Shown piece by piece: positions 262 to 39,882 of a DNA stretch of 64,000 nucleotides. This DNA is from an uncultured Actinomycetota bacterium (lineage in GTDB: Bacteria > Actinomycetota > Actinomycetes > JADGOV01): the NCBI GenBank assembly GCA_963814355.1, contig CAWFCZ010000018.1, positions 637,224-701,223 of the forward strand, given 5' to 3'. The position numbers and the translations under genes are program-made. How positions within the stretch are numbered: position 1 is the stretch's first letter; each line of letters opens with the position of its first letter. The notes beneath the pieces are model-generated. The model was not told the DNA's origin. It did no database searches and was given only the letters and a program-made list of their open reading frames with translations.

Positions 262-2476
262 TCAGGCTACGGAAAGCTCCGGCTCCGTGGTGGCAGGCGC
301 TGCGATGTCCAATGCGATGGGTGGGAGCGTGAAGCCCTTGAACGCCATCCAGAGGCCGACCGAGAGCTCCCACATCGCCACCGGAAAGGCCGCGATGCCC
401 GCCCAGGTCGAGAACTGGCCAAAGGCGCCGAACATCGTGGCGGTCGAGGACGCGATGAGCACGGGGGCGCCGATGAGTCCGAGCCTGGGGATGGCGCGAG
501 GAACGAGGCCGGACCGGTACATCAGTGAGCCGAGCAGGAGCGCGTTGACGCCGGAGAGGATGCCGGGGCCGACGAGGTACGCCCAGTTGTGGATCGCGAC
601 GAGGGCGTCGCCGGTGGTGGCCAGCGAGGCCCCGTCTGCTCCGGGGGTTCCGGCCAGGGCCGTTCCGCGCAGCACCGGGCCGTCTTGCGCCGACGCGAGA
701 CGCAACGCCTGCTCGTACGTGCGCATCGCGTCGCGGAGGCGACCTTGGGTGAGCCGGATGTCCGCCAGCGCGACCGCACAACCGAGGGTGTCGGCGATGT
801 ACCCGCCTCGCTCCAGCCTCGCTGTGCACTCGGCGTACATCCGGTGTCCGGCCTCGAGCTGCCCACTCGTCCAGTACGCAAGTCCGAGAAGGCCGGCGCC
901 GCCGCCACGCACCAGATGTGCGTCACTGCCGGCGAGCTCGAGCGCTCGTCGGGCGTGGGTCATGGTGGCGGCTATATCGCCGACGACCAACGCTCGCCCG
1001 GCCCGGTAGAGGGCTGCCAGCGACGGGAGCGCACGAAACTCGGCGTCGTCCACGACAACCATCGCATCCGGCGGGGCCGTTGGTGCCTCGGACAACCCTG
1101 CCGTCGGCTCCAGCCACCGCTCGGCGTCTCGGATCCGCTCCTCGACGCCCTCCAGCTGACCGGTGGTCAGCAACGCCCCGGCATAGTGGACGCTCAGCAC
1201 GGGCCTGCAGCGGAGCACGGGATCGGGAAGCGCCTGGAGCCAGGCGAGCGCGGTCGCCTCCTGCCGCTGTTGGCGCACGGCCGGTAAGGCCAGCTCGACG
1301 AGGTCCGCCGCTCGGGCGAAATCCTGAGCGGCAAGAGCGTGCCCAACCGCGTCGGAGAGGCGACCGTTGCGCTCGTACCAGGCGCTCGCCCGGCCGTGCA
1401 GCTCCGGCAGTCGGTCGGGCTGTTCCGAACGCAGACGCGCATTCAGCACGTCTGCGAACAGGCGGTGGTAGCGGTACCACTGGCGGTGGTCGTCGAGTGG
1501 GACCAGGAAAAGGTTCCCCCGGTCCAGCGCGCCCAGCATGGCTGTGCTGTCACGCTGGCCGGTGACGGCGTCGCAGAGCGGACCGCTCAGCCGACCGAGG
1601 ATGGAGGTCTGCAGCAGGAAGGCCTGTGCCCGGTCGGACTGTCGAGCCAGCCTCCTCGACCAAGTAGTCGACGACGTAGCGGTCGTCGCCCGAGAAGCCG
1701 GCGATGAAGGCGGTGGGGTCTTCCCGGCCCTGCATCGACAGAGCGGCCAACTGGAGGGCGGCAATCCAGCCTTCGGTCCGCCCCTCGAGGGCGGCGACGT
1801 CTTTGGGTGTCAGCCGCAGGCCCATCGTTCCGTTGAGGTAGGCCACGGCCTCCTCGGGGGTAAAGCGCAGATCGGCCGCGCGAGTCTCGACGAGCTGGCC
1901 GCGAGCCCTCAGCCGGGCCAGCGGCAGCAGGGGGTCGGCGCGGCCGGCGATCACCAGGTGCAGCCGCGCAGGCAAGTGGTCGAGCAGGAAGGCCATTTCC
2001 TCCTGCACATCGCGCGAGTCGATGACGTGGTAGTCGTCGAGCACCAGGACGATGTCGCTCGGCGTGGCGCCGAGGTCGTTGAGCAGCGTCGTGAGGACCG
2101 CCTGTATCGGGGGCGCCTGGGGTGCGTGCAGCAGAGCGAGCGCGCTCGCGCCCACCTCCGGCTTCACCGTCCGCAACGCGGCGATCACATACGTCCAGAA
2201 CGTCGTGGGGTCGTTGTCCTCCCGGTCTAGCGACAACCACGCGGCGCCGCGCGCATCAGAGTGCGCGGCGGGTCGCGCAGCCAGCCACTCCGCCAGCAGC
2301 GTCGTCTTGCCGAACCCGGCCGGTGCGGAGACGAGCACCAGCTTGGACAAGGTCCCCCGGTCAAGGCGCTCGCTCAGCCGCGGCCGCGGAACCAGACTCC
2401 CCTGCCACCTAGGGACGTAGAGCTTCGTCTCGAGCAGGGGGGACGGCACGACCGTCACGTGCTGCGAGCGCGCCAC
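262..2476 (-). pseudogene. MalT-like large ATP-dependent LuxR (LAL)-type regulator, truncated. AAA+ ATPase N-terminal part (1550-2476) plus TPR-like region (262-1764). A frameshift lies near 1550-1764. There is no LuxR HTH, and the C-terminus reads through into a DUF4386-like membrane fragment (about 262-500).
   Basis: Walker A motif GFGKTTLL and DDYHVID motif in the 1550-2476 ORF. Continuation in the 262-1764 ORF (LLQTSILGRLSGPLCDAV..WYRYHRLFADVL). The C-terminal residues RSGLVPRAIPRLGLIGAPVLIA resemble the end of DUF4386 proteins. Confidence 0.55.
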
Positions 2477-2701
2477 AGGCGGAGTCTAGGTCCCGATCGG
2501 CGCGTCGCTCCGGCGCCAGCGATCGACGGAGGATGGCCCGGTCGATCTGCCTCAGCACATTCTGGACGCTGAGCGCGCTCACCGGTGCGGCGCAGTTCTG
2601 TCAGGATTGCGGCGCCGGGGTGCCGAACACGACGAGTGCTGGGCCGAGAACCGGCGATCGGGTTGTGCGGCAGCCTCCTCGGCGGGAGCCAGGCGCCGAG
2701 G

Positions 2702-3405
2702 TCAGTCCTCCTTCGGCTGGTAGCGGTAGCCCATTCCTGGCTCGGTGAGCAGGTACCGGGGGCGGGACGGATTTTCTTCGAGCTTGCCGCGCAGCTGGGC
2801 CATGTACTGGCGTGGGTAGTGGGCGACGTCGGCGTGGTTCGGCCCGCGGATGTCGCGGATGAGTTCGCGTTGGGTGATGAGCCGGCCGGGTTGCGGAGCA
2901 GGATTTCGAGCAGGTGCCATTCGGTACGGGTCAGTCGGAGATCGGTTCGATCGCTCTTGCCGTCGCTGGCTGGCCGAGTGACTCGACGGTGAGCCAGGTC
3001 CACGTTGACCGAGCCCAGCGCGACCATGGGAGCGAGTTCGACTCCGCCGTGGCGGCGGGTGACGGCGCGAACGCGCGCAGCCAGCTCGTCGACATTGAAC
3101 GGCTTGGTGACGGAGTCATCGGCACCCGCGTCGAGCGCGCGGATCTTCTCTTTGCTGTTGAGCCGGCCGGAAAGGATCAGGATCGGGACCGGCGTCCAGC
3201 GACGTAGCTCGAGAATCACGTCGACGCCGTCCATGTCGGGCAGCCCGAGGTCGAGCACGATGAGGTCGGGATGTTCGCGGGCGGCCGCATCGAGGGCTTG
3301 ACGGTCGGCACTAGCGGTGAGGACGTCGTAGGACCGGGCCAGCAGGTTCACCCGCAACGCACGGAGGATTTGCGGTTCGTCGTCGACGACAAGGATCCTG
3401 GTCAC
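2702..3405 (-). pseudogene. kdpE: KdpE OmpR-family response regulator, frameshifted. Receiver domain at 2920-3405, winged-helix C-terminus at 2702-2920 in another frame.
   Basis: N-terminus MTRILVVDDEPQILRAL...DLGLPDMDG. The 2702-2920 ORF ends ...RPRYLLTEPGMGYRYQP, a typical OmpR/KdpE C-terminus. ATGA overlap with kdpD at 3402-3405. Confidence 0.7.
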
Positions 3406-5944
3406 GCCGTGGCCAGTTCGGTGACGTCGCCGCCTGGCCGCTGCGGGTGCGCGGAGCGCAGCCGGATGACCATGGTGAGCCCGCCGCCAGGTGTCTCCTC
3501 CGGCGTGAGCGCTCCGCCCATGACTTCGGTGAGCCCGCGGGCGAGAGCCAGGCCGAGGCCCACGCCGGTGGTGTTATCGGTGTCACCGAGGCGCTGGAAT
3601 GGGGTGAAGATGCGCTCCCAGTCCGTGTGCGGGACACCGGGGCCTTGGTCGATCACCCTCAGCTCCACATCGGCCCCGTGGGCGCTGCCGGACTGTCGCG
3701 GTGGTGTCGATGCCGGCGAATACCGCAGCGCGTTCGCGGTGACGTTGGCGATGACCCGCTCGAGCAGCGCCGGGTCGGCGAGTACCTCCGGCAGCACCGG
3801 GGGGAGTTCGATGCCGACATCCCGCGCGGCCGGTCCGAGCGCGTCGAGCGCGAGTGGGACGACCTCATCGAGGCGGGTCGGCTCGGGGAAGGCCGACAGA
3901 GCGCCGGCTTGCAGGCGGCTCATGTCGAGCAGGTTTTCCACCAGCCTGGCGAGCCGGTCGAGGGACTCCCGGGCTGTTGCGATCAACTCAGCGTGCTGCT
4001 CCTCCGTCCAGGCGATGGTTGCACTGGCCAGACTGTCGACCGCGGCCGTCGCCGAGGCGAGCGGCGAGCGCAGGTCGTGACTCACAGCGGCGAGCAGCGC
4101 AGCCCGCATCCGGTCGGCCTCGGCGAGCGGCTTCGCTGCCTGCGCCGCATCGGCAAGCTGCTGCTGCTCGAGTGCGGCCGCGGCCTGCGTCGCGAAGACC
4201 GTCAGTAGACGCTGCTCCTCGGCCCGGGGCCGGTGGCCGCGAATCACCAGCGCGACGCGGTCCTCGCCGATGGCGTTGCCGTCACCGTCCTCGGCGTGGC
4301 GCTCGGTGGTTCACCGAGGCTGGCGACGACCTTCCACTTCTCGATGGGCCCGTTTGGGACGCGTTCGAGCAGCGTGACCGCGTCAAGCGACAACGCCTCG
4401 CGGAGCCGGTCGATCAGCGCGGGCAGGGCAGCCTGCCCGCGAAGGACGCTGCCAGCGAGGGTGGCCAGAGTCTGCGACTCGGCGTTGGCTCGGGCCGCCT
4501 GCTGGGTACGTCGGGCGGCGAGATCGACCACCCAGCTGACCGTGGCCGCGACGAGAATGAACGCGACCAGGGCGATCACGTTGTCGCGTGCGGCGATCGT
4601 CCATCGATGGATCGGTGGCGTGAAGTAGTAGTTGAGCAGCAAGCTGCCGACGACCGCGGCCGCGATGCCGGGTAGGCGCCGCCGGCGAGCGAGACAGCGA
4701 CGACAGCGAGCAGGCACACCAGCAGGTCGCTGGTCAGGTTCAGCTCGGAACGCAGCTGGGCCAGCACAAGTGTGGTCAACGGCAGCAGAACCACCGCGAG
4801 TGCCGCACCGGGCCAACGCCGCCGGGCGCTCAGGCCGCCGGTCAGGTCGGGGAGACGCCTGCCGCGCCCGATCTGTTCATGGGTGACCATGTGCACGTCG
4901 ATGTCGCCGGACAGCCGCACAGTGGTCACGCCGATCCCGGCACCGGAGAAAAACGCAGCCAGGGCGGATCGGCGGGACGCGCCGACGACGAGCTGGGTGG
5001 CGTTCTCAGCCCGGGCGAAGTCGATGAGCGTTTGCGGCACGTTTTCGCCGACGATCTCGTGGTAGCCGCCGCCGAGCGACTCAAGCAGCCGACGCTGTTC
5101 GGCGAGATGGGCTGGGCTGGCGCCGGCGAGCCCGTCCGAAAGGACGACGTGCACGCCGAGAAGGTCGGCGCCACCGCGGGTGGCGATGCGCGCTGCCCGC
5201 CGGATCAACGTCTCCCCTTCCGGCCCACCGGTGAGCGCGACTACGACCCGCTCTCGGGTCTCCCATGTCCCTTCGATGTGATGGTCGCGGCGATATCTCT
5301 GCAATGACTCGTCGACCTTGTCGGCCAGCCACAGCAGCCAGCTCTCGTAGCGCGCTGAGGTTGCCAACCCGGAAGTAGTTGGCCATAGCCGCGTCGATCT
5401 TGTCGGCGGCGTAGATGTTGCCGTGCGCCATCCGCCGGCGCAAGGCTTCCGGAGTGATGTCGACGACCTCGACTTGGTCAGCGGCTCGGACAAACGCGTC
5501 CGGCACGGTCTCGCGCTGTCGGATGCCCGTTATCTTCTCGACGACATCGTTGACCGATTCGAGGTGCTGGATGTTGACCGTGGAGAGCACGGTGATCCCG
5601 GCGGCGAGCAGGCTCTCGATGTCCTGCCAGCGTTTCTCGTGCGCACAGCCAGGCACGTTGGTGTGAGCGAGTTCGTCCACGCAGACCACGTGCGGACGGC
5701 GCGCGATGACCGCGTCGACGTCCATCTCCTCGAACGTTGTCCCGCGGTAGTCGATGATCCGGCGGGGGACGACCTCGAGATCGCCGATCATTGACCGCGT
5801 GCGGGCCCGGCCGTGCGTCTCCACAAACCCGACGACGACGTCAGTCCCGCGAGACTTTCGGCGATGCGCCTCCCCGAGCCTCGCGTAGGTCTTTCCGACG
5901 CCCGGTGCGGCGCCGAGATAGATGCGCAACGTTCCGCAGGCCAT
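3402..5944 (-). pseudogene. kdpD: KdpD sensor histidine kinase, split into at least 4 reading-frame pieces: KdpD N-terminal domain 5081-5944, Usp/TM 4576-5493, TM/GAF 4244-4816, HisKA/HATPase 3402-4247.
   Basis: GAAPGVGKTY P-loop of the KdpD N-terminal domain. H-box SHDLRSPL. HATPase G-boxes DQGPGVP and GVGLGLAL. The pieces are colinear but in different frames. Confidence 0.75.
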
Positions 5945-5954
5945 GGCCGGGCCT

Positions 5955-6854
5955 CTATCGGGTCTGCAGCCGGTCGAGGGCGAGGTTGACCAGCAGCACG
6001 TTCACCGCGGGCTCACCCATGAAGCCCAGTGTCCTCGATGAGCTGTACTTGTTCACGAAGTCGAGCACCGTCGCCAGCGGAAGGCTGCGGACCCGGGCAA
6101 CGCGCGGGGCCTGCAGTCGGGCGTAGGCGACGGAGATGTCCGGGTCGAGCCCCGACCCGCTCGCGGTGACCGCGTCCGGTGGTACCGGGTTGGCCGGCCA
6201 GGCTCTTCCCGGCCCGCGCAGCGCGACGATGCGGCCGATGCGGTAGTTCTCGCCGAACGTCGCACACTGCACCGGGACACCGTCGAAGATCGCCAGGAAC
6301 AGTGTAGCCGGGCAGGCCTGATTCACGCTCACGACCCGTACCACCGCGCCGGCAATGCCCTGCGCGCGGATCACGGACAGGACCGCTCCTACCCCGTCCG
6401 GTGTGCAATAGGGCCTCAGGCCGTCGACTCTTTCGAGTTGGCCTACCGCGATGCTTCGTGCGCAGACCTGAGTCAGCAGTCCCTGCTTGCCGGTGTCGCC
6501 TTTGACGGACGGGTCGGGCGGCGTGTCAACGATCTCTTCCGGTCCGAGGTTCGAGGCGCTGGTGGCGGTCGGATCGTAGCCGTCACCGGCCGCCGAGGGG
6601 CGGGACTGGAAGTATTTCCGGATCGGGTTGCCCTTGCTGTCGGTGAAGGCCTGGCCGATCACCGCTGACCCGACGCCGCCGTTGGCGTCGATGAGGGACC
6701 CGTCCGCGCGGTGCTGCAGGCCAGGCATCTGCACGGCCGCGGTCACCGCAAGCGGGTAGGCGATGCCGAAGATGACCGTGAGGACGAATAGGGCGCGCAG
6801 TGCGGCGACGTGCCGGCGCAGCCAGGCGGGTAGTCGGATGAGCATCACAGTCAC
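5955..6854 (-). CDS. kdpC: K+-transporting ATPase subunit C (KdpC), apparently intact
   Basis: 299-aa ORF. N-terminal TM helix plus conserved KdpC motifs ([15 protein letters not shown]). Lies between kdpB and kdpD in the canonical order. Confidence 0.7.
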
Positions 6855-8954
6855 CGGATTCCGGGGATGAATTGCACCACGAGGTCGATCAGTTTGATGC
6901 CGAGGAACGGCACGACCAGCCCGCCGAGGCCGTAGAGGTAGAGGTTACGGCGCAGCATCGCCGAGGCGTTGCTGGGCCGGTAGCGCACCCCACGCAGCGC
7001 GAGTGGGATGAGCGCCACGATGATGAGCGCGTTGAAGACGACCGCGGCCAGGATTGCGCTCTCCGGCGAGTCCAGCCGGATGACGTTGAGCGTGTCCAGC
7101 CCCGGGTAGACCGCGGCGAACATCGCGGGGATGATCGCGAAGAACTTCGCGACGTCGTTCGCGATCGAAAAAGTCGTCGGTGACCGCGGGTGATGAGGAG
7201 TTGTTTGCCGATTTCGACGATCTCGATGAGCTTCGTAGGGTTGGAGTCAAGGTCGACCATGTTGCCGGCTTCTTTGGCCGCTGACGTACCGGTGTTCATC
7301 GCGACACCGACATCGGCCTGCGCCAGAGCGGGAGCGTCATTGGTACCGTCGCCCGTCATCGCGACGAGCTTGCCGCCCGCCTGCTCGCGACGGATCAGCG
7401 CCATCTTGTCCTGTGGTATCGCTTCGGCGAGGAAGTCATCGACTCCGGCCTCGTCAGCGATGGCCTTGGCGGTGAGCGGGTTGTCACCGGTGATCATGAC
7501 CGCGCGGATACCCATGGCGCGCAGCTCGTCGAAGCGTTCGCTGATGTCTTGCTTGACGATGTCCTTGAGGTGGATGACCCCGAGTACACGCGCGCCCGTG
7601 GGGCCCGTCGCCGCGACCACGAGCGGGGTACCGCCGGCGCTGGAGATCCCGTCCACGACCGGGCCGAGCTCGGCCGCCGGGACGCCGCCCGATTCGCGCA
7701 CCCAATCGCGGACCGCGCTCGACGCGCCCTTGCGGATCTGCCGGACGACGGCGTCGTCGGCCAGGTCGACGCCGCTCATCCGGGTCTGCGCGCTGAACGC
7801 GATGAACGTCGCCTGCCCGAGCTCGCCTTCGTGACGTTCCCGCAGCCCGTACCGGGTCTTGGCAAGCACGACGATCGAGCGGCCCTCTGGTGTCTCGTCG
7901 GCCAAGCTCGCCAGCTGGGCGGCGTCAGCCAATTCCGCTTCGCTGACGCCGGCGACCGGGATCAGCTCGACGGCTTCGCGGTTGCCGAGGGTGATGGTGC
8001 CGGTCTTGTCCAGCAGCAGGGTGTTGACGTCACCGGCGGCCTCGACCGCGCGGCCGGACATGGCGAGCACGTTGCGTTGCACAAGCCGGTCCATGCCGGC
8101 GATGCCGATGGCGGACAGCAGCGCACCGATCGTGGTCGGGATCAGACAGACCAGCAGCGAGACCAGCACGATGCCGGTGACACCGTGCGCGGTCAGCGCG
8201 CCCGAGTCGGGGACACCGGGTTGCTGCGCCTTCGAGAAGATTGCCAGCGGCTGCAGCGTCGCGACCGCGAGAAGGAAGATGATTGTCAACGACGCGAGGA
8301 GGATGTTCAGTGCGATCTCGTTCGGTGTCTTCTGCCGTGATGCTCCTTCGACGAGCGCGATCATCCGGTCGATGAAGCTCTCGCCCGGCTTCTGGGTGAT
8401 CTGCACGATGATCCGGTCGGACAGCACCCGGGTACCGCCGGTCACCGAGGAACGGTCCCCGCCGGACTCGCGGATAACCGGTGCCGACTCGCCGGTGATC
8501 GCGGACTCGTCGACACTGGCGATCCCCTCGACGACGTCGCCATGGCCTGGGATGGACTGGCCAGCCTCGACGATGACGATGTCACCTTGCTTCAGCCGGG
8601 TGGCGGGGACCTGCTCCTCCGGAATCCCGGCGATGTCGCGGCTTGGTGCCCACCGGCGAGCCGGCGGGCGACCGTCTGGGTCTTTGCGCGGCGCAGTGTC
8701 TCGGCCTGGGCCTTGCCGCGGCCTTCGGCGACGGCTTCGGCGAGGTTGGCGAACAGGACAGTCAGCCGTAGCCACGCGGCGGTGATGATCGCGAAGGCGG
8801 TGTGGTCGCGGATCGCCAGCCAGGTCGTGTAGATCGAGCCGATCTCCACGATGAACATGACCGGGTTCCTGTAAAGGGTTCGTGGGTCGAGCTTGCGGAA
8901 CGCGTCCGGGGTGGAGTGCCACAGCATCTTCGGGTCGAGTAACCCGCCCTGCAC
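6851..8954 (-). pseudogene. kdpB: K+-transporting P-type ATPase subunit B (KdpB) with two frameshifts, near 7150 and near 8640
   Basis: DKTGTIT phosphorylation motif, TGDN and [10 protein letters not shown] motifs in the 6889-8991 ORF. True N-terminus ([26 protein letters not shown]) in the 8592-8954 ORF. True C-terminus in the 6851-7123 ORF. Confidence 0.75.
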
Positions 8955-8999
8955 CCGACGTGGCCGACCCGGGGCATCTGCCGCGAGTCATACGTTGCG

Positions 9000-10680
9000 G
9001 CGGTCATCAGTGCAGCCCCTCTGACCCGGTTCCGCAGGTAGTGGGGTGGGGTGCGGCGTGGTGAGGTGACGAATGCCCTTGCTGGTAAGGAGAATCGTGG
9101 TGCTGAAGCCAGCGGTTCTCTGACCGGGAAGGGCACCCGTCCGGTGAGCAGACTACGACGGAAAGCACGTGGTTCCACCAGGGCCCGGGTTCGGCGCGCC
9201 GGGGTGCGGTTGGGACGGCCGGATCCGTCGCTGACCGGCGTCGCGGGTTTGGCGGGTGTGGATGAGCTGGTCGCCGCGTTGGGGGTGGTGCCGGCGTTGG
9301 ACGCGGGTATCGGGGCGGTCAAGTCCCGGGTCCGGGGCGCGACCGCCGGGCAGTTGGTGACCGGGTTGGCGGCGGCGCGGTGGTGCGGCGCCGAGTGGCT
9401 GTCCGGCTGTGACGGGCTGCGGGCCGACGCGGGCAGCGCGCTGCTGACCGAGGCGGCTGTCCCGGCGTCGACGACGGCCGGGTCGTTGATGCGCCGGTTC
9501 GGCCCGGGGCAGATCGCCGGGATCGAGACCGGGCTCGGTGTGGTCTATGACCGCTGGCTGGCGCTGGTGCCCGGCGCTACCCGTGCTCCGCTGGTCACCC
9601 GGGCGCCGAGGATCGACCTGGACGCCAGCGACGTCGAGGTCTACGGCCGGGCCAAGTGCCGGGTCGGCTACACCTACGCCGGGGTGAAGGCCGGCCGGGT
9701 ACATCTGGCGAGCTGGGCCGGCGCCGAGTTGCCGTTGGCGGCCGATCTGATCGCCGGCAACGAGGATGTCCGCCCGGACGCGCCGGCGCTGCTCCGCCGG
9801 GCGCTGGCCGTGCTGCCGGCGGCGGTGTGCGCCCGGCCGCGGCTGCGCGCGGATGCCGGCTACTTCGACGCCGCCCTCGCCCACGCCGCCCGGGACGCGG
9901 GCGTCGATTTCGCTATCGCCGCGAAGCGGAACCCGGCCGCGTGGCGGGCGTACGCGGGCATCGAGGAGACGGCCTGGCGCGACGCCCGGGACATGACCGG
10001 CGCGCAGGTCGCGTCGTGCGGCTACACCCCGGCCGGCTGGCCGGAAGGCACCTACACCATCGTGCGCCGGGTCCGCGTCGACGCCGAGACGATCAGCGCG
10101 GACCCGCGGTCGAGGCGACGGCGGACCATCGCCGCTGACCAGCTGCGCCTCGCGCTCAACCGGCTGGTCGACCATGCCTGGGCGGTCAGCTTCATCGTCA
10201 CCGACATCCCCGCCGACGACGCCGACCTGGTCGGGCTGGAAACCTGGTTCCGCAACCCGGGTCAGCGTCGAGGAACGCTTCCGGGAAGCCAAACTCGGCG
10301 CCGGGCTGTTCCACCTCCCCTCCGCCGACCACACCGTCAACACGGTCTGGACCTGGGCGGCGCTCCTCGCCGGCGCGCTCAACGTGATGCTCACCGGCCT
10401 GACCGGGGCGCAGCCCTACGTGCGCCACCCCGGCCGGGTGCACATCGACACCCTCCGCCGCCACCTACTCACCACCCCGGCACGGCTGATCCGCCACGCC
10501 CGCGGCCTGACCCTACGACTACCCCCCAACGCAACGCGGTCGAACAAACGAACGAAAAAAAAGACCTGACCCTACGACTACCCCCCAACCGCAACGCGGT
10601 CGAACACGTCCTGACCCGGCTGCGCGCACTCCCCGCCCCGGCCTACTGACCGACGACCCCGCCCCTACCACCGGAGACAC
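9000..10680 (+). mobile_element. IS1380-family insertion sequence occupying the position where kdpA should be. Its transposase carries a 1-bp homopolymer frameshift (about 10262) and a 3' tandem duplication. Element ends are not resolved.
   Basis: Transposase ORF 9051-10649 with N-terminal DPSLTGVAGL..ELVAALG motif and DDE-type core. C-terminal part ERFREAKLGAGLFHLPSADH..NTVWTWAALLA is in the 10174-10569 frame. The element sits between kdpB (start 8954) and kdpF (10883). Confidence 0.6.
10506..10606 (+). repeat. Tandem duplication (about 41-bp unit, 59-bp period, A-rich 18-bp linker) inside the 3' end of the IS1380 transposase gene
   Basis: cctgaccctacgactaccccccaacgcaacgcggtcgaaca occurs twice (10506-10546 and 10565-10606). 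The copies are separated by aacgaacgaaaaaaaaga. Confidence 0.8.
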
Positions 10681-10799
10681 CGGACACCACGCCGGACGAA
10701 CCGTCACGCCCAGACACACCCGCCACTATCCGGCCGCGCCAGCACCAAGATCACAGCCCTAACTGCGGAATTGGGTCAGACCGATCACGTTCTCCGCGG

Positions 10800-10883
10800 T
10801 CACAGCTTTTCCGCTCCTCGGACGATCAGTGCGAACACCGTGAAGATCGCAACGGTGAGCAGGATGAAGATGAGGTCACGCAT
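10800..10883 (-). CDS. kdpF: K+-transporting ATPase subunit F (KdpF), 27 aa, intact. Not in the ORF track.
   Basis: Minus-strand ATG at 10883. Translation MRDLIFILLTVAIFTVFALIVRGAEKL followed by TGA. Single hydrophobic helix typical of KdpF. Confidence 0.7.
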   Translation of the reverse strand: MRDLIFILLTVAIFTVFALIVRGAEKL

Positions 10884-13041: not shown

Positions 13042-14949
13042 TCAGTAGCCGACTGTCCGGTAGCTCACCCGAGGCAGCGCGGGGCCGCCAGGTGACAGCG
13101 CAGTCCTGGCTTTTGACTCGTCTGCGAGCTCGGTGAGCAGGAAGGCCGTGACGTAATGCTTGATCACGGCGCGCGCCCGCGTGCGGTCCCACGCGGGGTC
13201 GTCGGAGAAGCCCATCGGAACGAGGGCCGTGATCCGGCGCAGGCGGTCGCAGCGACCCGAGAACACGAAGTGCTCGGCACCGTCGAGGCCGACCTCAACC
13301 TTGCGGATGCTGGATGCCCCTTCATACGCGAGCCGGGTGCTCCAGTCGTACGGCGAGTCGTCGTCGGCGGTGCCTCCAATGACCAGCAGTGGTGCGGTGA
13401 GGGACGCGAGTCCGGGCTCGCCGAACATCGCGGCGTCGCCTGCCAGCGACACCACGGCGTCGACCGGCCTTGGGCCGGCGACGGTCCCACGTGCGTTGGC
13501 GGCGACGACCTGGTCGAACCGCGGCTCCAGGGCGTCGCAGAGGAAGCCGATCGGGTTGTCGTCCTCACGGGCGGTGGCGCAGCCGGCGGTGAAGGCGTCG
13601 GCATCCAGGCGGGCGCCACCGGAGGCGAGCGCGGTGTAGCCGCCGTAGGAATGGCCCACGACGGCCACGGTCCCGGGGTCCACGAGACCGGCGAGGGCCC
13701 CAGCGGAATGGGCCTCGGACTCGACGTACGCCCGGGTCTGCGCGATGTCGTCGACGCGGTCGATCGCCGCGCGCCAGAGGGTCCGCGGGTCGAAGGTCTC
13801 CTCGTGTTGCGGCGCGACCACGACCATCCCGTGGGAGGCGAGGTGCTCGGCCAGCCAGGCGTAGCTGCCGGGCGTGATCGCGAACCCGGACGAGAGCACC
13901 ACCAGCGGGTAGGGGCCTTCGACGACGTCGGGTGCGGCGCCGAGCCGGCCGACCCCCTCGTAGGTGGCCAGTGCGGTCGACACGCTCGGGCCGAGCACGG
14001 TCAGCGCGTAGGAGTAGGTCATCGGGGACTCTGAGGCGGCCGACGCCGTCGCCGGGTACCACACGCTCATCTTGAGTGGGGCGCCTTGTTCGGGTCCGAT
14101 CCGGCGGACGCCGACGGGATGGTCCCCAGGAGCAGCATGACTCAGCCTGGAGTACGTCGACCCGGCCGCGACGAGGTCGGGGGTGGTGAACCCGAACAAG
14201 TAGGCACCAGCCTGCGCCACGAGCCCCGCGAGCACGAGACCGACGAGGCTCGCGACGAGAATGGCCTTGGCGATGGTGCGGCGGACGGCGTTCACGGCGG
14301 GCACCTCCTGACGAAGCGCGGGCTCAGATCCGGGCGTGCTCTGCACGAAATGGCCGACGCCCGCTAGGGCGAGCAGGATTCCGGGCAGCCGGGGCAGGAA
14401 GCCTGAGCGGTGGACGAGCCATCCGGTGAGCACCAGGGACAGCGCGAAGAAGAAGCCCCAGACGAGCACGATGTCGTCGTTCGCCTCCTGGAAGAGCAGC
14501 GCGAGGCCATCGCGTTGGTCGGCCTCGAATGCCGCGAGGTAGCCCGGGTTGGAGACGACCAGCAGGGTGACGACACTGGTGACCAGGCAGCCGGCGGCCA
14601 TCACGACAGCCTCGGCCACCCGTGCCAACGAGGCGGCAAGTGACATCGGCCGGCTGACTGGTCGCAGCAGGGCGTAGAGGACGGCGGCCAGTACGATCTC
14701 GACCAGCACGATCGTGGCCTCACCGGCCATCCCCCAGCGGAACAGGGTTTCCTGGGCACGGATGTTGTCGGCGGTGGCCGCGGCATCGCCGGGAACGACC
14801 AGACTCGACCGGACCAACGTCGACATCGGGTAGACCACGAAGATGGCGAGGTAGAGGCTGCCGGCCAGCTTGGTCAAACGGCGCAGCGGCGGGCGCTCCT
14901 GCGACGTCGGGATGACGGCGGTAGGCGTTGATGTAGTGGTGGCGGTCAT
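13042..14949 (-). CDS. Fusion protein: N-terminal DUF4386-like polytopic membrane domain plus C-terminal alpha/beta hydrolase (dienelactone hydrolase / PAF-acetylhydrolase-like)
   Basis: Several TM helices (LVHRSGFLPRLPGILLALAGVGHF). Nucleophile elbow GHSYGG. Start taken as ATG 14949 (MTATTTS...). Confidence 0.6.
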   Translation of the reverse strand: MTATTTSTPTAVIPTSQERPPLRRLTKLAGSLYLAIFVVYPMSTLVRSSLVVPGDAAATADNIRAQETLFRWGMAGEATIVLVEIVLAAVLYALLRPVSRPMSLAASLARVAEAVVMAAGCLVTSVVTLLVVSNPGYLAAFEADQRDGLALLFQEANDDIVLVWGFFFALSLVLTGWLVHRSGFLPRLPGILLALAGVGHFVQSTPGSEPALRQEVPAVNAVRRTIAKAILVASLVGLVLAGLVAQAGAYLFGFTTPDLVAAGSTYSRLSHAAPGDHPVGVRRIGPEQGAPLKMSVWYPATASAASESPMTYSYALTVLGPSVSTALATYEGVGRLGAAPDVVEGPYPLVVLSSGFAITPGSYAWLAEHLASHGMVVVAPQHEETFDPRTLWRAAIDRVDDIAQTRAYVESEAHSAGALAGLVDPGTVAVVGHSYGGYTALASGGARLDADAFTAGCATAREDDNPIGFLCDALEPRFDQVVAANARGTVAGPRPVDAVVSLAGDAAMFGEPGLASLTAPLLVIGGTADDDSPYDWSTRLAYEGASSIRKVEVGLDGAEHFVFSGRCDRLRRITALVPMGFSDDPAWDRTRARAVIKHYVTAFLLTELADESKARTALSPGGPALPRVSYRTVGY

Positions 14950-15320
14950 GGTTTTTCCTGGGGCTATTGGATGGACAGGTCCTCTCCTCGACTGTCGCGT
15001 TTGTTCATGTGCATTCCTCTCCTCTGAAATGGCTCGTGGATCGCGTGGCCTCCTCACCAACAGCACGCTGGGGGCCCGGGGGATGTACCGGGACCGGTAG
15101 AACACCACCCCGAGTAGCACCAGGTGGATGCCGACGAAGCCGAGAGCGGCGAGGAAGCCAGCGCTGAAGGCTGACCGGGGCATGGATCAGGTAGAGCGTC
15201 ACGGAGAGCGCGACGTCCACGGCCACGATCACGAGCCAGGCGATCAGGCTGAGATTGAACTGGGCGCGGGAGCCGGCGATGTTGTCGGCGGTTGCCGCGG
15301 CGTCAGGCGGGACTGGTAGT
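14950..15320 (-). pseudogene. Short remnant resembling the C-terminal end of another DUF4386-type membrane protein, read in frame upstream of the previous gene
   Basis: FLAALGFVGIHLVLLGVVFYRSRYIPRAPSVLL resembles the ..LVYRSGFVPR..LGVLL.. terminus of DUF4386 proteins. No start or functional context. Confidence 0.3.
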
Positions 15321-16386: not shown

Positions 16387-16649
16387 GGGCCTCCTTCGAT
16401 GAGCGGTGGGGAAAGCCGTGCATGTCCGAGTCTTGATGACGGTGGGTCGGTTGCCCATCGGGGCGCCACCTCAATTTCGTCGCAGCATGCGGTCGCGGGT
16501 GGTGTGTGGATGGGGTGGAGGCTGCATTGCGCGGGGCACATGGCGTGAGCGAGGCTGGATCAGTGAGCGCTTTCTTAACGCGCCCAGCGCTGGGCGCGAA
16601 AACCCATCGTCCGAACTGGGTGCGCCCAGCATCGTGGGGGCCATCGCTG

Positions 16650-17616
16650 TACATGCGCGTGGTTCTCGTCAACAGCTCCGTCCTGCTGCTGGCCGTCCTC
16701 GCCTTGGTCGTCACGCCGGTGACGGTGTCGTTCCCGATCGCGACCGAGCAGGGCCTGGTGCTGACGGTCGGGGCGGTGGTCATCGCCACCGCGAATGCGG
16801 TGCTGCTGCGTCTCAACTTCCGTGGACTCCGGGCAGTGGTTCGCCGCATGGAGACGATCGACGTGCTGAGACCCGAGGAGCTCCTGCCGGAGACCGGCGG
16901 CCCCGAGGCGAAATCGCTCATCGTCGGCTTCAACACGATGCTGGACCGTCTCGAGACCGAACGCCGGACGAGCGCCCGGCGGACGCTCAACGCCATCGAG
17001 AGCGACGCCGACGGATCGGTCGCGAGCCGCACGACGAGATCGGCCAGCGCCTGACCGGAACGCTGCTGGAACTGCAACGCCTGGCAGATGACCTACCTGA
17101 GCCGTTCAAGTCCGAGGTCGGGTCCATCCGGGAACAGCAACGTGCGACGCTGGACGAAGTCGGTGCCCTCGCGTGCAGATGCGCCCAGCCCTCCTGGACG
17201 ACCTCGGGCTGCTCAGCGCGGTCGACGCTCTGGCCGAATCGCTGGACGAACAATCCGTCCGGATCGAGACGTCGCTCCCTCGTGGCCTGAGCGCGCTTCC
17301 TCCGGATCTGGAGCTGGTCGTCTACCGCATCGCGCAGGAGGCGCTGACCAATGCGGTACGCCCCGCGGGGGCGTCCCGCATCGAGCTCGAACTTGAGGTG
17401 CGCGCCGGCCGGCTGACATTGCGGGTGACTGATGACGGCACCGGCTTGTCCGCCGCGACGTCGGAAGGACCTGGGATCCGGGGGATGCGCGAGCGAGCTC
17501 TCCTCGTCGGGGGTCGCCTGCACATTGGCCCGGCCGCAGCCGCGCGGCGACCCGGGCATCGAGGCACCACCGTCCGGCTCGACATTGCGGACCTCACCCC
17601 GGTCGCCCCCCGATGA
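16650..17616 (+). pseudogene. NarL-partner sensor histidine kinase (HisKA_3 + HATPase_c) with frameshifts near 17000 and 17170
   Basis: TM N-terminus (16506-17054 ORF). H-box region EPHDEIGQRLTG in the 16406-17290 frame. ATPase part ELVVYRIAQEALTNAVRPAGAS..DDGTG..GIRGMRERA in the 17173-17616 ORF. Confidence 0.65.
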
Positions 17617-18328
17617 CCGATTCCGGCGTGGCGCGGGTGCTGATCGCCGATGACCATGCCGTCGTCCGGGCGGGTCTCAGGGCGCTGATCGATCGGGAAC
17701 CGGATCTCGAGGTCGTGGCCGAAGCCGCTGACGGACGCCAAGCCCTGCAGATGGGCATGAGTGAGGATCTCGATCTCGCCATCCTCGACATTGCCATGCC
17801 GGGCCTGACCGGCTTGCAGGCCACCCGCGAGATCCGCCGCAGACGCGAGCTGCCGATCCTCATCCTCTCGATGTACGACCGTGAGCAGTACTTCTTTGAG
17901 GCGGTCGCGGCGGGCGCCGCAGGGTACGTGCTCAAGCGCCAGGGCGACCAGGACATCGTCGAAGCTTGCCGAGCCGCTATCGGCGGCGAGCCCTTCGTCT
18001 ATCCCAACGCCCTCAGCGCCCTCATGCGCCGGTACCTCGCCCTGGTCGACCACGGCCAGGACCCAGGTGCCGGACCTCTCACAGCCCGGGAGACCGAGGT
18101 CGTCAAGCTCATCGCGGAGGGGCACAGCTCCCAGGAGATCGCCGACTCTTGTGCATCAGCCTCAAGACGGTGGACCGGCACCGGACCAACCTGCTCGAGA
18201 AGCTCAACATGAACGACCGGGTCCAGGTCACCCGCTACGCCATCCGAGCCGGCTTGGTCGAACCATGCGTGCGCCGGCACGGCCTTGCTCGCGGTTCGTC
18301 GTCCAAACAGCGATCGATTCAATCTTGA
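17613..18328 (+). pseudogene. NarL/LuxR-family response regulator with a frameshift near 18140
   Basis: Receiver domain VLIADDHAVVRAGL..DLAILDIAMPG. LuxR HTH (TVDRHRTNLLEKLNMNDRVQVTRYAIRAGLV) is in the 17966-18328 frame. ATGA overlap with the kinase. Confidence 0.7.
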
Positions 18329-23567: not shown

Positions 23568-24988
23568 CTAGGGCCCGGCCGAGGCTGCCGAGCACCTGTA
23601 CGTACCTGGCATCGTGCGCGTCCAGGCCACTGTCGGGCAGGGCGGTCGAGAGCAGGTCGGCCGCCCGGGTTCCGTGGACGCCGGGGCGCCAGGTGGCGTC
23701 CTCGAACCCCATCGCCGCGACCAGTCGCAGGTCGGACGGCCGAGGAGCGCCAGCTGTTCGTAGATCTCCCGGGCACGGGGAAAGTTGCAGGACCGCACGT
23801 AGTCGGAGGCAGCCGCCAGCAGGAGGCTCGAGTGCTCCAGCTCTTCGCAGCCGGGCAGCGCAGCCGCGCGCTCGAACCAGCCGGCCGCCTCCTCGAACGC
23901 CAGGCTCTCCTCGGCCAGGCGACCCGCGTCACGGCTGTGCGCCAGTGCCCGGTCGTGGAAGCCGAGCGCGCTCGCAGCAAGGAAATGGTGAGCCAGGCGC
24001 GGGATCAGCGCGGTCGGCCGAGGCAGCCGTTCCAGGGCCTGGCCCGCGCACGCGTGGAGGTGGGCGAGCCGCGACGGCGGGGTGCGGTCGATTACGGCCT
24101 GCCGGGTCAACGAGTGGACGAAGGCGAAGCGGGCTCCGTGCTGATCGACCGGCTCGATCAGGCCCGGGGCGACGGCGGCGTCGACGAACTCCAGCGTGCG
24201 CCGACGGTCGGTCCCGCCGGCTGCGATGAGAGCCGCCAGCTCGAACTCGTCCCCAGGACCGCTGCCTGCTCCAGGATGTTCCGGACCGCCTCCCCCATGC
24301 CGGCGATCCGCCCTTCGACAGTGTCGCTGATCGAGGCCGGCACCCGGTGCCAAGACCGCAGGTCAGACACCGCACCACGGCGTTCCAGGTCCGCCCACAT
24401 CTCCCGGAGGAAGAACGGGTTGCCGCCGGTGCGGTCGCGCAGGAGCGCGGCGGCTGCGCGAGCCTGGTCCGGGGCGAGTCCGGTTCGCAAGGCCACGAAC
24501 TGCGCGATGGCGTCGGTGTCCAAGCCGTCCAGGTCGAGCCGTCGGACTCCCTCGAGCCGGTGCATGTCGGCCATCCAGAGGGAAAGCTCGTCGGACCGGT
24601 CGGGCCGGGTGGTGCGGAACGTCGCGATCAGCAGGATGCGGGCCTCGGTCGACGCGCTCGCCAGGTGCTGGAGCATGCCGAGCGAGGGGAGCTGCGCCCG
24701 CTGTAGATCCTCGAGCACCAGGACGAGCGGGCGGGTTTCCGCCAAGCGGGCGAACAGAACGCTCACGGCCTTGAACAGGTCACGCCGCTGGTCCGCGGCC
24801 CCAGGAGGTCCCTCGACGCTGCGCCGGTGCCGGTCGACCTTGACGGACAGCCGTCGCAGCAGCGCGCTCTCATCGTCGAGCACCTGGCTCAGGCTGCCGG
24901 GTGGGCTGTCCTGCATCAGCTGGTCGAGCAGGTCGGCGAACGGCTGGTAGGGGACGCCAGCCGGACGGGCAACGGCGGCAGGGGCCAC
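23568..24988 (-). pseudogene. Second LAL-type regulator fragment (24158-24988 and 23568-24353 in different frames) lacking the Walker A N-terminus and the LuxR HTH
   Basis: LVLVLEDLQ (Walker-B-like), GNPFFLRE motif and a TPR-like continuation. No P-loop and no HTH. Confidence 0.5.
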
Positions 24989-25031
24989 GACGTCACGTCG
25001 CGGTCATCCCCTGGCTGAAGTCGGCGCCCTG

Positions 25032-25293
25032 GCTCAAATCGGCGCCGAGGTCCCGTCGGGCAGGACGCGCCCGGTCACCTCGACGATCACATCGGCCGGC
25101 AGGTCGGCCCGCTCAGCCGCCATGCGGATCGCCTCCGGAGACGACGCCTCGTAGAGACACTAGGTCTTGCGTCGGTCCGCCGACAGGAACGAGTACAGCC
25201 AACTCACGCCTTGCTCATCGTTGATCCGGTTGATGCCGTCAGCCACCTCAGCGACGCCCTCGAGCGCCTGCGCGAAGCGACGCTCGACCATGA
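25032..25293 (-). pseudogene. DUF4242-family small protein with an in-frame amber codon (25151-25153)
   Basis: MPIFMVERRFAQALEGVAEVADGINRINDEQGVSWLYSFLSADRRKT-TAG-CLYEASSPEAIRMAAERADLPADVIVEVTG... The residues after the TAG continue in the same frame and match the family. Confidence 0.55.
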
Positions 25294-25423
25294 AGATCGG
25301 CATGGCGCCTCCCTGACTGCCCCGGTTTCGCGGCGGCGACCCGGCCGACAGACCTTCCCCGGCATCGACACTACGCCGGCTCATCGCCGGCGACCACAGA
25401 CCCACCGAGCCCACGCGCTGGCG

Positions 25424-26201
25424 CTACTTGACCGATCCGGCCATGACCCCCTGGACGAAGAACCGCTGGAAAGTCAGGAAGACCACGAGGGGGACCACCA
25501 GAGACGGGAACGCGCCCGGTGCGAGGATGTCGATGCTGCTCCCGAATTGGCGGGTCTGGCTTGCGAGGGCGACCGTGACCGGCTCGGTCGACTGGTTGCT
25601 GAAGACCAGGGCCACCAAGAGGTCGTTCCAGACCCACAGGAACTGGAAGATCCCGAGCGACGCGATGGCCGGCAAGCCCAGCGGAGTACGACGCGGACGA
25701 AGATCTCACGGCATCGGCCAGGCCACGGCTCGGCTGGTCGGCGTAGATGAGCTCGAAGGTGATGCCCGAGGCCAGGAACGAGATGGCCATGGGCATGAAG
25801 AGGACGGTCTTGAACACCGTGGCCCAGCGCACGTGCTCGGACAGGACCGCGAAGACCAGGCCGAGGATGGTGACGACCGTGGGTGCGACCACGACCCAGA
25901 TCACGTTGTTCTTCACCGCGCGCAGCGTCGAGGTGTCGGTGAAGATCTGGTGGTAGTTGCCCAGGCCGACGAACCGGCCGACCGCTCCGGCCGGCCCGTC
26001 GGCGAACAGGCTCCGCACGATTGTGTAGCCCAGGGGGTAGAGCAGGATCGCCGCCAGCAGGACCAGCGCCGGGGCCAGGAAGACGAGCGCCACCCACCGA
26101 CGCTCACCCGGCGGCCGCTGGAATGCCCCGGGTGCCGCCGGCGGCGGCGCCGGTTCGGCCACCGACTGCGCGCGGCCCAGGGCCGCCCGCGATGCCACCA
26201 C
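25424..26201 (-). pseudogene. Carbohydrate ABC transporter permease, frameshifted and internally deleted
   Basis: N-terminal half in the 25371-26201 ORF (VFLAPALVLLAAILLYPLGYTI..LGNY). C-terminal ..FLTFQRFFVQGVMAGSVK in the 25424-25675 ORF. The total length is too short for an intact permease. Confidence 0.55.
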
Positions 26202-26243
26202 GGCTGACCCTCCTTCGCGCCGTCGCGTAACCAGCCGAGTCGC

Positions 26244-27310: not shown

Positions 27311-28025
27311 GCCTTCTCCCGCCCCGAGCACCGGCACTGCGAGCGGGGATTCGACCGCGGCAACCAGCTGCAGGAGCAGTACCTCGCGACCATCAAGGAC
27401 GTCCGCCCGTCGGTCGTCCTGATCCAAAGCAGCAAGGACCTGGGCTCGGGCGTCGTCCTCGAGCCAGGGCGACATCGTCACCAACGACCACGTCGTCGGC
27501 ACGGCAACGTCCATCCCGGTGACGCTCTCCGGGAGCTCCACCAGTCACCCCGCAACGCTCGTCGGCACCTATCCCCCGGACGACCTCGCCGTCATCCGGG
27601 TAAGCGGCGCCGGCACGCTGCGCCCGGCCCACTTCGCCAACTCCTCCAAGCTCGAGGTCCGGCGACATCGTCCTGGGCAGCGGCAACCCTCTGGGCCTGG
27701 CCAGCAGCGTGACCAACGGGATCATCTCCGCGCTCGGCCGGACCGTCAGCGAGGCGACGAGCGCGGACTCGCCCGGCGCCACCCTCCCCGACACCATCCA
27801 GACCAGCGCCGCAATCACCCTCGGCGGCGTCTGGTCGACCTCTCCGGCCAAGTCATGAGGATCCCGACGCTCGCGGCGACCGATCAGCGGCTCGGTGGGG
27901 GGCCGCGCCAAGCATCGGGTTTCGCTATCTCCAGCAACGTCGTCAAGGACATCGCCGCCCAGCTCGTGGCGGACGGCAAGGTCACCCGGTCGCACCGCGC
28001 CGCGCTGGGCATCCGACCTACCTGA
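27290..28025 (+). pseudogene. HtrA/DegP-like S1C serine protease, frameshifted at least twice
   Basis: SVVLIQSS..LGSGVVLE and ..DIVTNDHVV in one frame. GNPLGL..GIISALGR.. in a second frame. C-terminus ..VKDIAAQLVADGKVTRS. Confidence 0.5.
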
Positions 28026-39868: not shown

Positions 39869-39882
39869 GACCTACACTTATG

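Follow-up and report, generated by a model that had tools for sequence, protein, structure and literature searches.

An IS1380-family element in place of kdpF and kdpA in a probably decayed kdp locus of an uncultured actinobacterium

In Escherichia coli and Mycobacterium tuberculosis, the KdpFABC complex and its regulators KdpDE are encoded in the order kdpF-A-B-C-D-E with stop codons overlapping start codons. Insertion sequences (IS) of the IS1380 family (NF033539; Pfam DDE_Tnp_1_4) are elements of about 1.7 kb with a single DDE transposase gene and short inverted repeats, and generate target duplications of 4-5 bp. That dispensable transport operons suffer IS-mediated deletions and decay into pseudogenes is textbook knowledge, and IS expansion with pseudogene build-up under relaxed selection is known from Mycobacterium ulcerans, Shigella and Yersinia pestis. 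In the DNA analyzed here, called the window (the whole stretch, 64 kb), a locus with the gene order and the overlapping stops and starts of the described kdp systems contains such an element. A functional KdpFABC complex cannot be encoded at this locus, where 18 nt of kdpA and 28 nt of kdpF remain and kdpB, kdpD and kdpE are frameshifted. We consider it very probable that the kdp(F)ABC-kdpDE locus is dead, having lost kdpF and kdpA by an IS-associated deletion and then decayed under relaxed selection.

The locus was analyzed by Pfam and NCBIfam profile searches and by tblastn of the 64 kb with the intact orthologues of three relatives as queries, and lesions were placed by DNA alignment of the window to three relatives with intact genes. 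The host is a high-GC actinobacterium, and its nearest relatives are Mycobacteriales and Frankiaceae MAGs. The following features were obtained:

2702..3405, minus strand: kdpE pseudogene; Response_reg and Trans_reg_C in different frames
3402..5944, minus strand: kdpD pseudogene; four tblastn segments in alternating frames
5955..6854, minus strand: kdpC, intact, 299 aa; TIGR00681 with 155.7 bits (cutoff 152.55)
6851..9007, minus strand: kdpB pseudogene; central piece matched by TIGR01497 (701 bits); tblastn similarity in three segments, each in another frame
9007..9024, minus strand: kdpA remnant, last 18 nt; stop overlaps the kdpB ATG (TGATG), as in relatives
9025..10775, plus strand (transposase): IS1380-family element, defective, 1751 bp; NF033539 matches, inverted repeats and sister copies
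10250..10262, plus strand: transposase +1 frameshift (AACC[C]GGGTC); frame switch at 10256/10257
10506..10564, plus strand: 59-nt insertion near the transposase 3' end; repeat families D5 and D6
10776..10803, minus strand: remnant of the true kdpF, first 28 nt; similarity to KdpF N-termini of relatives
10800..10883, minus strand: 27-codon small ORF, intact, product MRDLIFILLTVAIFTVFALIVRGAEKL; homologues in relatives

Thus kdpE, kdpD, kdpC, kdpB, the IS1380-family element and the 27-codon ORF follow one another along the minus strand by ascending coordinate, and the order given in a preliminary description of this DNA (kdpF-IS1380-kdpB-kdpC-kdpD-kdpE) stands except for its first label, the 27-codon ORF having been misnamed. 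Up to ~38 kb, the window holds many decayed accessory genes, the kdp locus among them; an intact housekeeping cluster occupies 40-64 kb.

The gene for the K+-conducting subunit, kdpA, had been described as missing, and tblastn with three KdpA proteins (two of 553 aa, the third a longer stop-to-stop ORF) found no KdpA similarity in the whole 64 kb at E<=1e-3. The final 18 nt of the gene, with its stop codon, nevertheless persist (TCA GAG GGG CTG CAC TGA, SEGLH*) and correspond to the kdpA end of relatives (...GCG GA(A/G) GGC (C/T)TG CAC TGA, AEGLH*), which overlaps kdpB in the same manner. From the kdpF start to the kdpA stop, relatives L002, L004 and L005 have 1751 nt, of which the window retains 28 + 18 nt. 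Hence about 1705 bp, from kdpF codon 10 to the sixth-last kdpA codon, are missing and the 1751-bp element stands instead; the similar sizes of element and lost DNA appear to be a coincidence.

At the 5' end of the operon, the ORF at 10800-10883 had been taken for an intact kdpF. This assignment had to be rejected, as the ORF matched no Pfam or NCBIfam model, those for kdpF (TIGR02115) included, and a different ORF of the relatives passes that model instead. In relatives, kdpA is preceded by two small ORFs, the first of which is the homologue of the 27-codon ORF and likewise matched no profile model, while the second (e.g. MTADNLIGLILAIATGIFLVVALLFPERF) passes TIGR02115 with 27.6 bits (cutoff 26.85). 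In the window, the 27-codon ORF ends in a stop codon overlapping the GTG with which the true kdpF begins, and of this kdpF GTG ACC GCG GAG AAC GTG ATC GGT CTG A (VTAENVIGL) is left before the IS cuts it; this resembles the KdpF start of relatives (VTAENLIGL... in L002). The gene for the small subunit KdpF is incomplete at this locus. Homologous 27-codon ORFs with a stop overlapping the kdpF start occur in 60 of the 70 loci of relatives, with the consensus MADVVFVLLTIAVFAVLGLVVRAVERL. The product, a putative membrane peptide, might serve as a so far undescribed fifth component of Kdp or as a leader peptide with a regulatory role. In the locus described here, this ORF is the only surviving part of the operon's 5' end. 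For annotation, it should be kept in mind that the first small ORF in actinobacterial kdp operons is not kdpF.

The inserted element is a member of the IS1380 family by its DDE transposase, homologous to NF033539 and PF13701. Two transposase pieces on the plus strand match NF033539 with 119 and 54 bits and span model positions 6-299 and 333-418 of 419; each stays below the whole-protein cutoff of 180 bits only because the gene is split. The closest proteins are 56-76% identical, apart from a 99% identical copy of the same IS (P0001), and the few homologues with names are all called IS1380 family transposase (57-68% identity). The element had been placed at about 9000-10680 in the position of kdpA; these coordinates are corrected here, its ends, defined from the copies L081 (99.3% identical) and L084, lying at 9025 and 10775. 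There it carries the inverted repeats CCCGGTTCCGCAG.../...CTGCGGAATTGGG with the pattern CCC(G/A)(G/A)TTCCGCAG. L084, located on another contig, is flanked by a clean 5-bp TCTGA duplication, and removal of its core together with one TCTGA yields a continuous full-length HTH_67 protein, residues 5-270 of which align to positions 1-264 of the 268-position model.

The element lacks the single uninterrupted transposase ORF of an autonomous IS. The +1 frameshift at ~10256 separates ...ETWFRN from RVSVEERFREAKLG..., where intact homologues have EAWFRSRVSIEERFREAKLG, and is identical in sequence in L081 and L084, i.e. in all three copies seen. The IS lineage thus seems to have reached at least three sites with the same transposase frameshift, which would imply that it was mobilised in trans or that the frameshift is bypassed by recoding. 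The 59-nt insertion, composed of a 41-nt imperfect duplicate and 18 nt of A-rich filler (AACGAACGAAAAAAAAGA), is absent from L081 and L084 and among the three copies thus specific to that in the window. A TCWGA sequence adjoins the left end of all three copies seen, which suggests a target preference of this IS; we found no description of such a preference.

The flanks of the window copy, TCTGA (9020-9024) and TCAGA (10776-10780), are not direct repeats of each other, which is what a deletion would lead one to expect, and point to an IS-associated deletion instead of a simple insertion. Such non-matching flanks, in contrast to the clean duplication around L084, are typical of IS-mediated deletions or of two IS copies having recombined. 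In this scenario, an IS copy would have inserted into the kdp operon at a TCWGA target, and the intervening DNA would have been lost when one IS end transposed intramolecularly to a second TCWGA site (adjacent deletion) or, alternatively, when two direct IS copies recombined. One could also assume an IS-independent deletion between TCWGA microhomologies which joined the truncated kdpF and kdpA, later insertion of the IS at the junction, and mutation of one copy of the target duplication. The flanking 5-mers indeed differ at the central base only, and the joined flanks read ...GTGATCGGTCTGA followed directly by GGGGCTGCACTGA, with a single TCWGA. However, this needs three independent events (deletion, insertion exactly at the scar and point mutation) compared to one well-known IS-mediated event, and since TCWGA adjoins the left end of all three copies, two different TCWGA sites are just what an IS-mediated deletion should leave; we regard the IS-independent deletion as very improbable. 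After an IS-associated deletion, the pump would be functionless, with KdpA (the K+ path) and KdpF gone and kdpBC transcription interrupted, and the dedicated sensor-regulator pair would be left without a target. Under relaxed selection, 1-2-nt deletions and damaging substitutions would then build up. The IS may have come first or the regulators may have decayed first.

In kdpB, kdpD and kdpE, all six 1-2-nt lesions placed by DNA alignment to the three intact relatives are deletions specific to the window. The counts reported before (at least two frameshifts in kdpB, at least three in kdpD and one in kdpE, with kdpC intact) were confirmed and could be refined. In kdpB, 1 nt each is deleted at ~8653 and ~7183, and there is a further N-terminal frame break between the conserved ATG at 9007 and the GTG at 8954 (VQGGLLDPK), which are 53 nt apart, compared to 63 nt in L005. 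Although kdpB is no longer a single P-type ATPase ORF, its homology is clear, with tblastn segments 84-87% identical to L005 KdpB and the motifs DKTGT, TGDN and one 10-residue motif still readable. Deletions of 2 nt at ~5338 and of 1 nt at ~4670 and ~4300 distribute the KdpD, Usp, DUF4118, HisKA and HATPase_c domains of kdpD across four ORFs, and in kdpE a 1-nt deletion at ~2888 separates the receiver domain from Trans_reg_C. Hence no adjacent intact kdpD and kdpE are present, with all domains recognisable. In contrast, kdpC is of full length, with residues 1-298 aligning to relatives at 72-75% identity and no private replacements at invariant columns. At ~1.1 lesions per kb, a stretch of 900 nt would escape any lesion with a probability of roughly 0.35, and their being short targets would suffice to explain why kdpC and the 84-nt ORF upstream have stayed intact.

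A contig of 1,268,737 nt, as the source of the window, almost certainly stems from a long-read metagenome assembly, sister contigs bear Flye-style names, and such assemblies have indel errors. It could thus be argued that the IS and the loss of kdpA are genuine while the six or seven small frameshifts are consensus errors, such as may arise where coverage is low or strains vary, and that kdpB, kdpD and kdpE are intact in the organism. The kind of lesion fits this, as all are 1-2-nt deletions of which four or five of six touch short C/G runs, and all frame-breaking lesions are indels: no nonsense codon occurs, and no in-frame stop is found in kdpB, kdpD and kdpE repaired by padding the deletions. 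Several of the deletions, however, are at runs of just 2-4 nt, that at 7183 (GGT[G]CAC) is outside any run, and other CCCGGG-type contexts within the IS leave the reading frame undisturbed. Furthermore, ten other long ORFs (20.4 kb) are free of frameshifts despite more C/G runs of at least 3 nt per kb (40.5 vs 29.5 in kdpB/D/E), and the Pfam matches listed for UPF0182, Zincin_2, DUF4386, Pyr_redox_2 and the UvrD N-terminal and PD-(D/E)XK domains cover the model from end to end. With the frameshift rate of the kdp genes, this set should contain 22.7 frameshifts (P(0) ~1e-10), a contrast which is inflated by the ORFs having been picked as long and reading through. Also the contiguous 40-64 kb block showed no convincing frame switch.

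The repaired proteins carry an excess of private replacements at columns otherwise invariant among 57-71 relatives, namely 7 in KdpB, 5 in KdpD and 2 in KdpE (e.g. TPEDK to IPQDK and GALTTF to G?PTTF), compared to means of 0.70, 0.81 and 0.25, respectively, in the relatives. Neighbouring genes show fusions and truncations, i.e. a MalT-like/DUF4386 fusion, an ABC-permease fusion (recognized by eye, no Pfam match) and a solute-binding-protein fragment, which are kinds of lesions that base-calling cannot create. Finally, a separately assembled contig (L083, Logan assembly of run ERR11571143) is identical base for base to positions 2288-3933 (1646 nt, 100%) including the kdpE frameshift, and encodes the same frameshifted 316-aa kdpE product; this comparison covers one of seven kdp sites, and the run is possibly not independent short-read data. 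Taken together, the frameshifts are most likely biological, and an origin of all of them in assembly errors is improbable. Comparing the distribution of lesions with read-through ORFs, counting private substitutions where relatives are invariant and consulting a second assembly thereby offer a read-free way to separate true decay from long-read assembly error. The earlier proposal of an IS-associated kdpA loss followed by relaxed selection is thus supported by the non-matching flanks, the excess of private replacements and the frameshift-free comparison ORFs. Its further statement that high-affinity K+ uptake is non-functional holds for the present locus only; a second kdp locus may exist elsewhere in the genome, as several relatives have two (L070/L080, L031/L038 and L033/L052) and the analysis covered 64 kb of the 1.27-Mb contig. 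The decay suggests that the present high-affinity K+ scavenging system has become dispensable to this uncultured lineage and, together with the many neighbouring pseudogenes, hints at an accessory genome being shed.

As ordinary gene decay, a known phenomenon, the decayed kdp locus itself is not novel; there is a small chance that the conserved, translationally coupled 27-codon ORF upstream of actinobacterial kdpF and the frameshifted IS lineage with its TCWGA preference are new. Compared to KdpFABC/KdpDE of E. coli and M. tuberculosis, the locus shares the KdpB motifs, the KdpD domain architecture (KdpD/Usp/DUF4118/HisKA/HATPase_c) and the KdpE receiver with Trans_reg_C. It differs by its kdpA and kdpF remnants and frameshifted kdpB, kdpD and kdpE and, together with its relatives, by the additional 27-codon ORF ahead of kdpF and by a KdpC which, with 299 aa, is long compared to the 182-position Pfam model. 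The element resembles other IS1380 members in its single transposase gene, size, inverted repeats and, in the sister copy L084, 5-bp target duplication, but has a split transposase, the 59-nt insertion and TCWGA at its left end, and marks a deletion instead of a simple insertion. As in M. ulcerans, Shigella and Y. pestis, intact housekeeping genes are mixed with IS-disrupted, frameshifted, truncated and fused accessory genes, a likeness seen here in 64 kb of the present genome.

The kdp genes lie on the minus strand of the window (GC content ~70%) and were assigned with Pfam and NCBIfam models. Lesions were mapped by DNA alignment of the window to the loci of three relatives with intact kdp genes (L002, L004 and L005), and all frame changes mapped in this way were deletions private to the window.

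Genes of the kdp locus (minus strand) and frame-breaking deletions
kdpE: Response_reg and Trans_reg_C, in two frames; deletion of 1 nt at ~2888
kdpD: KdpD, Usp, DUF4118, HisKA and HATPase_c, distributed over four ORFs; deletions of 2 nt at ~5338, 1 nt at ~4670 and 1 nt at ~4300
kdpC: single ORF of 299 aa; TIGR00681 at 155.7 bits (cutoff 152.55)
kdpB: central piece matching TIGR01497 (701 bits), N- and C-terminal pieces in other frames; deletions of 1 nt at ~8653 and 1 nt at ~7183
27-codon ORF, 10800-10883: last in the locus, beyond a plus-strand transposase

Relatives were represented by 80 loci obtained from a KdpC scan with one genome per species, the nearest being Mycobacteriales and Frankiaceae MAGs (72-75% identity). 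In L002, L004 and L005, kdpA, kdpB, kdpC, kdpD and kdpE are uninterrupted, encoding 553 aa (KdpA) and 722 aa (KdpB) in L004 and L005, and 299-301, 847 and 227-233 aa (KdpC, KdpD and KdpE) in all three. When the relatives' proteins were searched against the window by tblastn, KdpB matched in three frames, KdpD in four and KdpE in two, KdpC was found whole, and the KdpA queries from the three reference loci gave no match anywhere in the 64 kb. These results bear out the preliminary description, which had reported kdpA as missing without any KdpA-like frame, kdpB, kdpD and kdpE as frameshifted, and kdpC as intact; it was largely correct, and only its kdpF identity and its IS coordinates had to be revised. 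Padding of the deletion sites restored full-length proteins without a stop codon. At the start of kdpB, the conserved ATG at 9007 overlaps the kdpA stop codon (TGATG). From this ATG to the conserved VQGGLLDPK there are 53 nt in the window vs 63 nt in L005, so that the two are out of frame with each other; GTG 8954 could be used as a replacement start. Rfam detected one tRNA only in the window and no riboswitch upstream of the operon.

The transposase is encoded in two pieces on the plus strand, and the sole model matched was the IS1380 family NF033539 (119 and 54 bits; model positions 6-299 and 333-418 of 419). Two further copies of the element were present on contigs of the ENA assembly ERZ25039495, one 99.3% identical and 3′-truncated (L081), the other complete and located inside an HTH_67 gene (L084); neither the window nor the 80 relatives' loci contain any other copy or inverted-repeat match. 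In L084, a core CCCGG...TTGGG is flanked by direct TCTGA repeats, and removal of this core and one TCTGA yields a continuous HTH_67 match (residues 5-270 to model positions 1-264 of 268; 282 bits). Since excision restores the host gene, the IS proper corresponds to window positions 9025-10775 (1751 bp) with a 5-bp duplication, and these ends replace the earlier placement at about 9000-10680. A longer element, TCTGACCC...GGGTCAGA (9020-10780), with perfect terminal repeats was rejected, because L084 would then be without target duplication and HTH_67 out of frame. TCWGA adjoins the left end in all three copies, which suggests a target preference of the IS. The 13 nt of left flank, GCAGCCCCTCTGA, are common to the window (9012-9024) and L084 (3604-3616), although the hosts differ (kdpA and HTH_67); the target preference may be extended, or the junction may have formed through microhomology.

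Nor is the element intact. All three copies, which occupy three different sites, have a +1 frameshift in common in their transposase gene (AACC[C]GGGTC, ~10256), and homologous transposases are uninterrupted at the equivalent position. Programmed frameshifting was rejected here: we judged AAC CCG GGT not to be a slippery +1 site, and the shared frameshift was therefore treated as a plain mutation. The copies differ among themselves by about 0.7%, and it seems that the IS spread while defective, perhaps in trans, or that its copies were homogenised. A 59-nt insertion at 10506-10564, present in the window copy only, consists of a 41-nt imperfect duplicate and the A-rich 18-mer AACGAACGAAAAAAAAGA, an odd filler given a genome GC content of 70%; the insertion may either be genuine and templated or have arisen locally as an artefact of assembly at a repeat.

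In the window, the IS is flanked by TCTGA (9020-9024) and TCAGA (10776-10780), which are reverse complements of each other and form no direct repeat. Further outwards, nucleotides 1-28 of kdpF are retained on one side and the last 18 nt of kdpA on the other (TCA GAG GGG CTG CAC TGA, where the relatives encode AEGLH*). As the span from kdpF start to kdpA stop is 1751 nt in L002, L004 and L005 and only these flanks were kept, about 1705 nt are missing. The lack of a direct repeat and the missing DNA led us to reject simple IS insertion; judged from these flanks, the junction very probably arose by an IS-mediated adjacent deletion or by recombination between two direct IS copies. The IS length (1751 bp) and the kdpF-kdpA span (1751 nt) agree, but no mechanism was found for this and it was treated as coincidence.

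For locating frame switches, a GC-phase Viterbi segmentation of the window was used. It recovered all kdp frame switches and placed additional candidates exclusively in the first ~38 kb.

Further regions of the window with lesions, with a possible fusion or without clear coding phase
262-2476 (-), directly downstream of kdpE: pseudogene formed by truncation and fusion; MalT/LuxR-type regulator (AAA_16 + TPR_MalT), frameshifted at ~1651 and joined directly at its 3′ part to model positions 109-210 of 210 (the C-terminal half) of a DUF4386 membrane protein
13042-15183 (-): one 713-aa ORF with DUF4386 and alpha/beta-hydrolase (chlorophyllase/PETase-like); natural architecture or another fusion
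16646-18285 (+): second decayed two-component system; HisKA_3/HATPase_c kinase with two apparent frame switches (~17013 and ~17171), NarL-type regulator with a frameshift at ~18146 inside the GerE domain
23570-27854 (-): remnants only, in the following four pieces
23570-24956 (-): AAA_16 regulator, N-terminally truncated and frameshifted
25438-26202 (-): ABC-permease N-terminus apparently deletion-fused to the C-terminus of a second permease (by eye; no Pfam match)
26974-27544 (-): solute-binding-protein fragment, model positions 57-149 of 307
27545-27854 (-): unidentified coding-like segment, also with a frame switch
30060-34092 (+): FAD/NAD-binding oxidoreductase with frame switches at ~30316 and ~30756, alpha/beta hydrolase (Abhydrolase_1) with a frameshift at ~32836, DUF998 protein with a frameshift at ~33720
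28522-30059, 31267-32606 and 38750-39880: 1-1.5 kb each, no clear coding phase, long ORFs without Pfam match; possibly genes in an advanced state of decay, or else unknown content

The source contig of 1.27 Mb implies a long-read MAG, and it is therefore a fair question whether the kdp frameshifts are assembly errors rather than biology. Five lines of evidence favour biology, namely lesion distribution, substitutions, neighbouring lesions, a second assembly and sequence context. Lesion distribution was assessed with ten other long ORFs, several of which have Pfam matches spanning the whole model. They comprise the UPF0182, PDZ/Lon-like protease, Zincin_2, ABC1 kinase, UvrD2 (with HRDC) and two AdnAB-like helicase-nuclease genes of an intact housekeeping block (40007-63992), which adjoins tRNA-Met (39883-39959) and is in marked contrast to the decay at 0.3-38 kb, as well as a MOSC/FNR-type reductase, a disulphide reductase and a DUF4386-hydrolase ORF. 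These ORFs, picked because they read through, contain no frameshift in 20.4 kb, whereas the kdp rate of 1.11 per kb would predict 22.7 (P(0) ~1e-10); C/G runs of 3 or more number 40.5 per kb in them vs 29.5 in kdpB, kdpD and kdpE. Private replacements, i.e. window residues of the repaired proteins that differ at columns invariant in all other sequences, amounted to 7 in KdpB, 5 in KdpD, 2 in KdpE and 0 in KdpC, vs means of 0.70, 0.81, 0.25 and 0.23 in the relatives; the KdpB count was equalled only by one much more divergent KdpB.

The lesions of neighbouring genes cannot, by their nature, stem from base-calling; they include the MalT-like regulator fused to the DUF4386 tail, the two ABC permeases that look fused by eye, the solute-binding-protein fragment and the AAA_16 regulator without its N-terminus. 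Frameshifts within single Pfam domains (GerE, DUF998 and Abhydrolase_1) belong here too, and the hydrolase and the DUF998 protein, once repaired, each show a single domain across the junction. The frameshifted 316-aa kdpE product was present in the Logan assembly of run ERR11571143 (platform not established), where a contig of 1646 nt corresponds to window 2288-3933 with zero mismatches and zero gaps. The second-assembly comparison applies to kdpE only, since searches by exact product were unsuccessful for KdpC (299, 297 and 296 aa), for the N-terminal ORF of KdpD, for the central (700 aa, and the 518-aa call P0257) and C-terminal ORFs of KdpB, and for the methyltransferase. Several of the deletions are at runs of just 2-4 nt, and that at ~7183 lies outside any run. 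We consider the kdp frameshifts very probably genuine.

Without KdpA and KdpF, and with the operon interrupted, the pump would be lost, and KdpD and KdpE would then be dispensable too, because they regulate only this operon. The kdp genes have 14 private replacements and 6-7 indels over 5.4 kb, on the order of what a neutral time similar to the IS divergence would produce; this suggests that IS activity and decay of the locus were roughly contemporaneous. That kdpC (900 nt) and the 84-nt ORF have survived is compatible with chance. Several relatives in the 80-locus scan have two kdp loci and the window covers 64 kb, so the organism may retain a second copy elsewhere. An IS-associated deletion followed by decay, as originally proposed, is supported by the non-duplicated flanks, the missing ~1705 nt and the frame-breaking deletions; the locus is a clean but ordinary example of such a deletion with subsequent pseudogene decay.

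The small ORFs require a different reading. Relatives have two of them upstream of kdpA, and the one adjoining kdpA (e.g. MTADNLIGLILAIATGIFLVVALLFPERF) scores 27.6 bits with the kdpF model TIGR02115, above its cutoff of 26.85. In the window, the true kdpF starts at GTG 10803 (VTAENVIGL) and runs for 28 nt up to the edge of the IS. The kdpF initially described as intact was MISIDENTIFIED, and the ORF at 10800-10883 is a homologue of the relatives' other, outer small ORF, for which no Pfam or NCBIfam model matched. This hydrophobic 27-codon ORF (consensus MADVVFVLLTIAVFAVLGLVVRAVERL) is most variable at third codon positions; its stop codon overlaps the kdpF start in 60 of 70 relatives' loci, and in L002, L004 and L005 it lies about 86 nt upstream of kdpA. 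We found no description of an extra small ORF upstream of kdpF in the literature searched, including two reviews, and no close precedent; in Actinomycetota it may encode a leader peptide or a small protein associated with Kdp that has not been described before.
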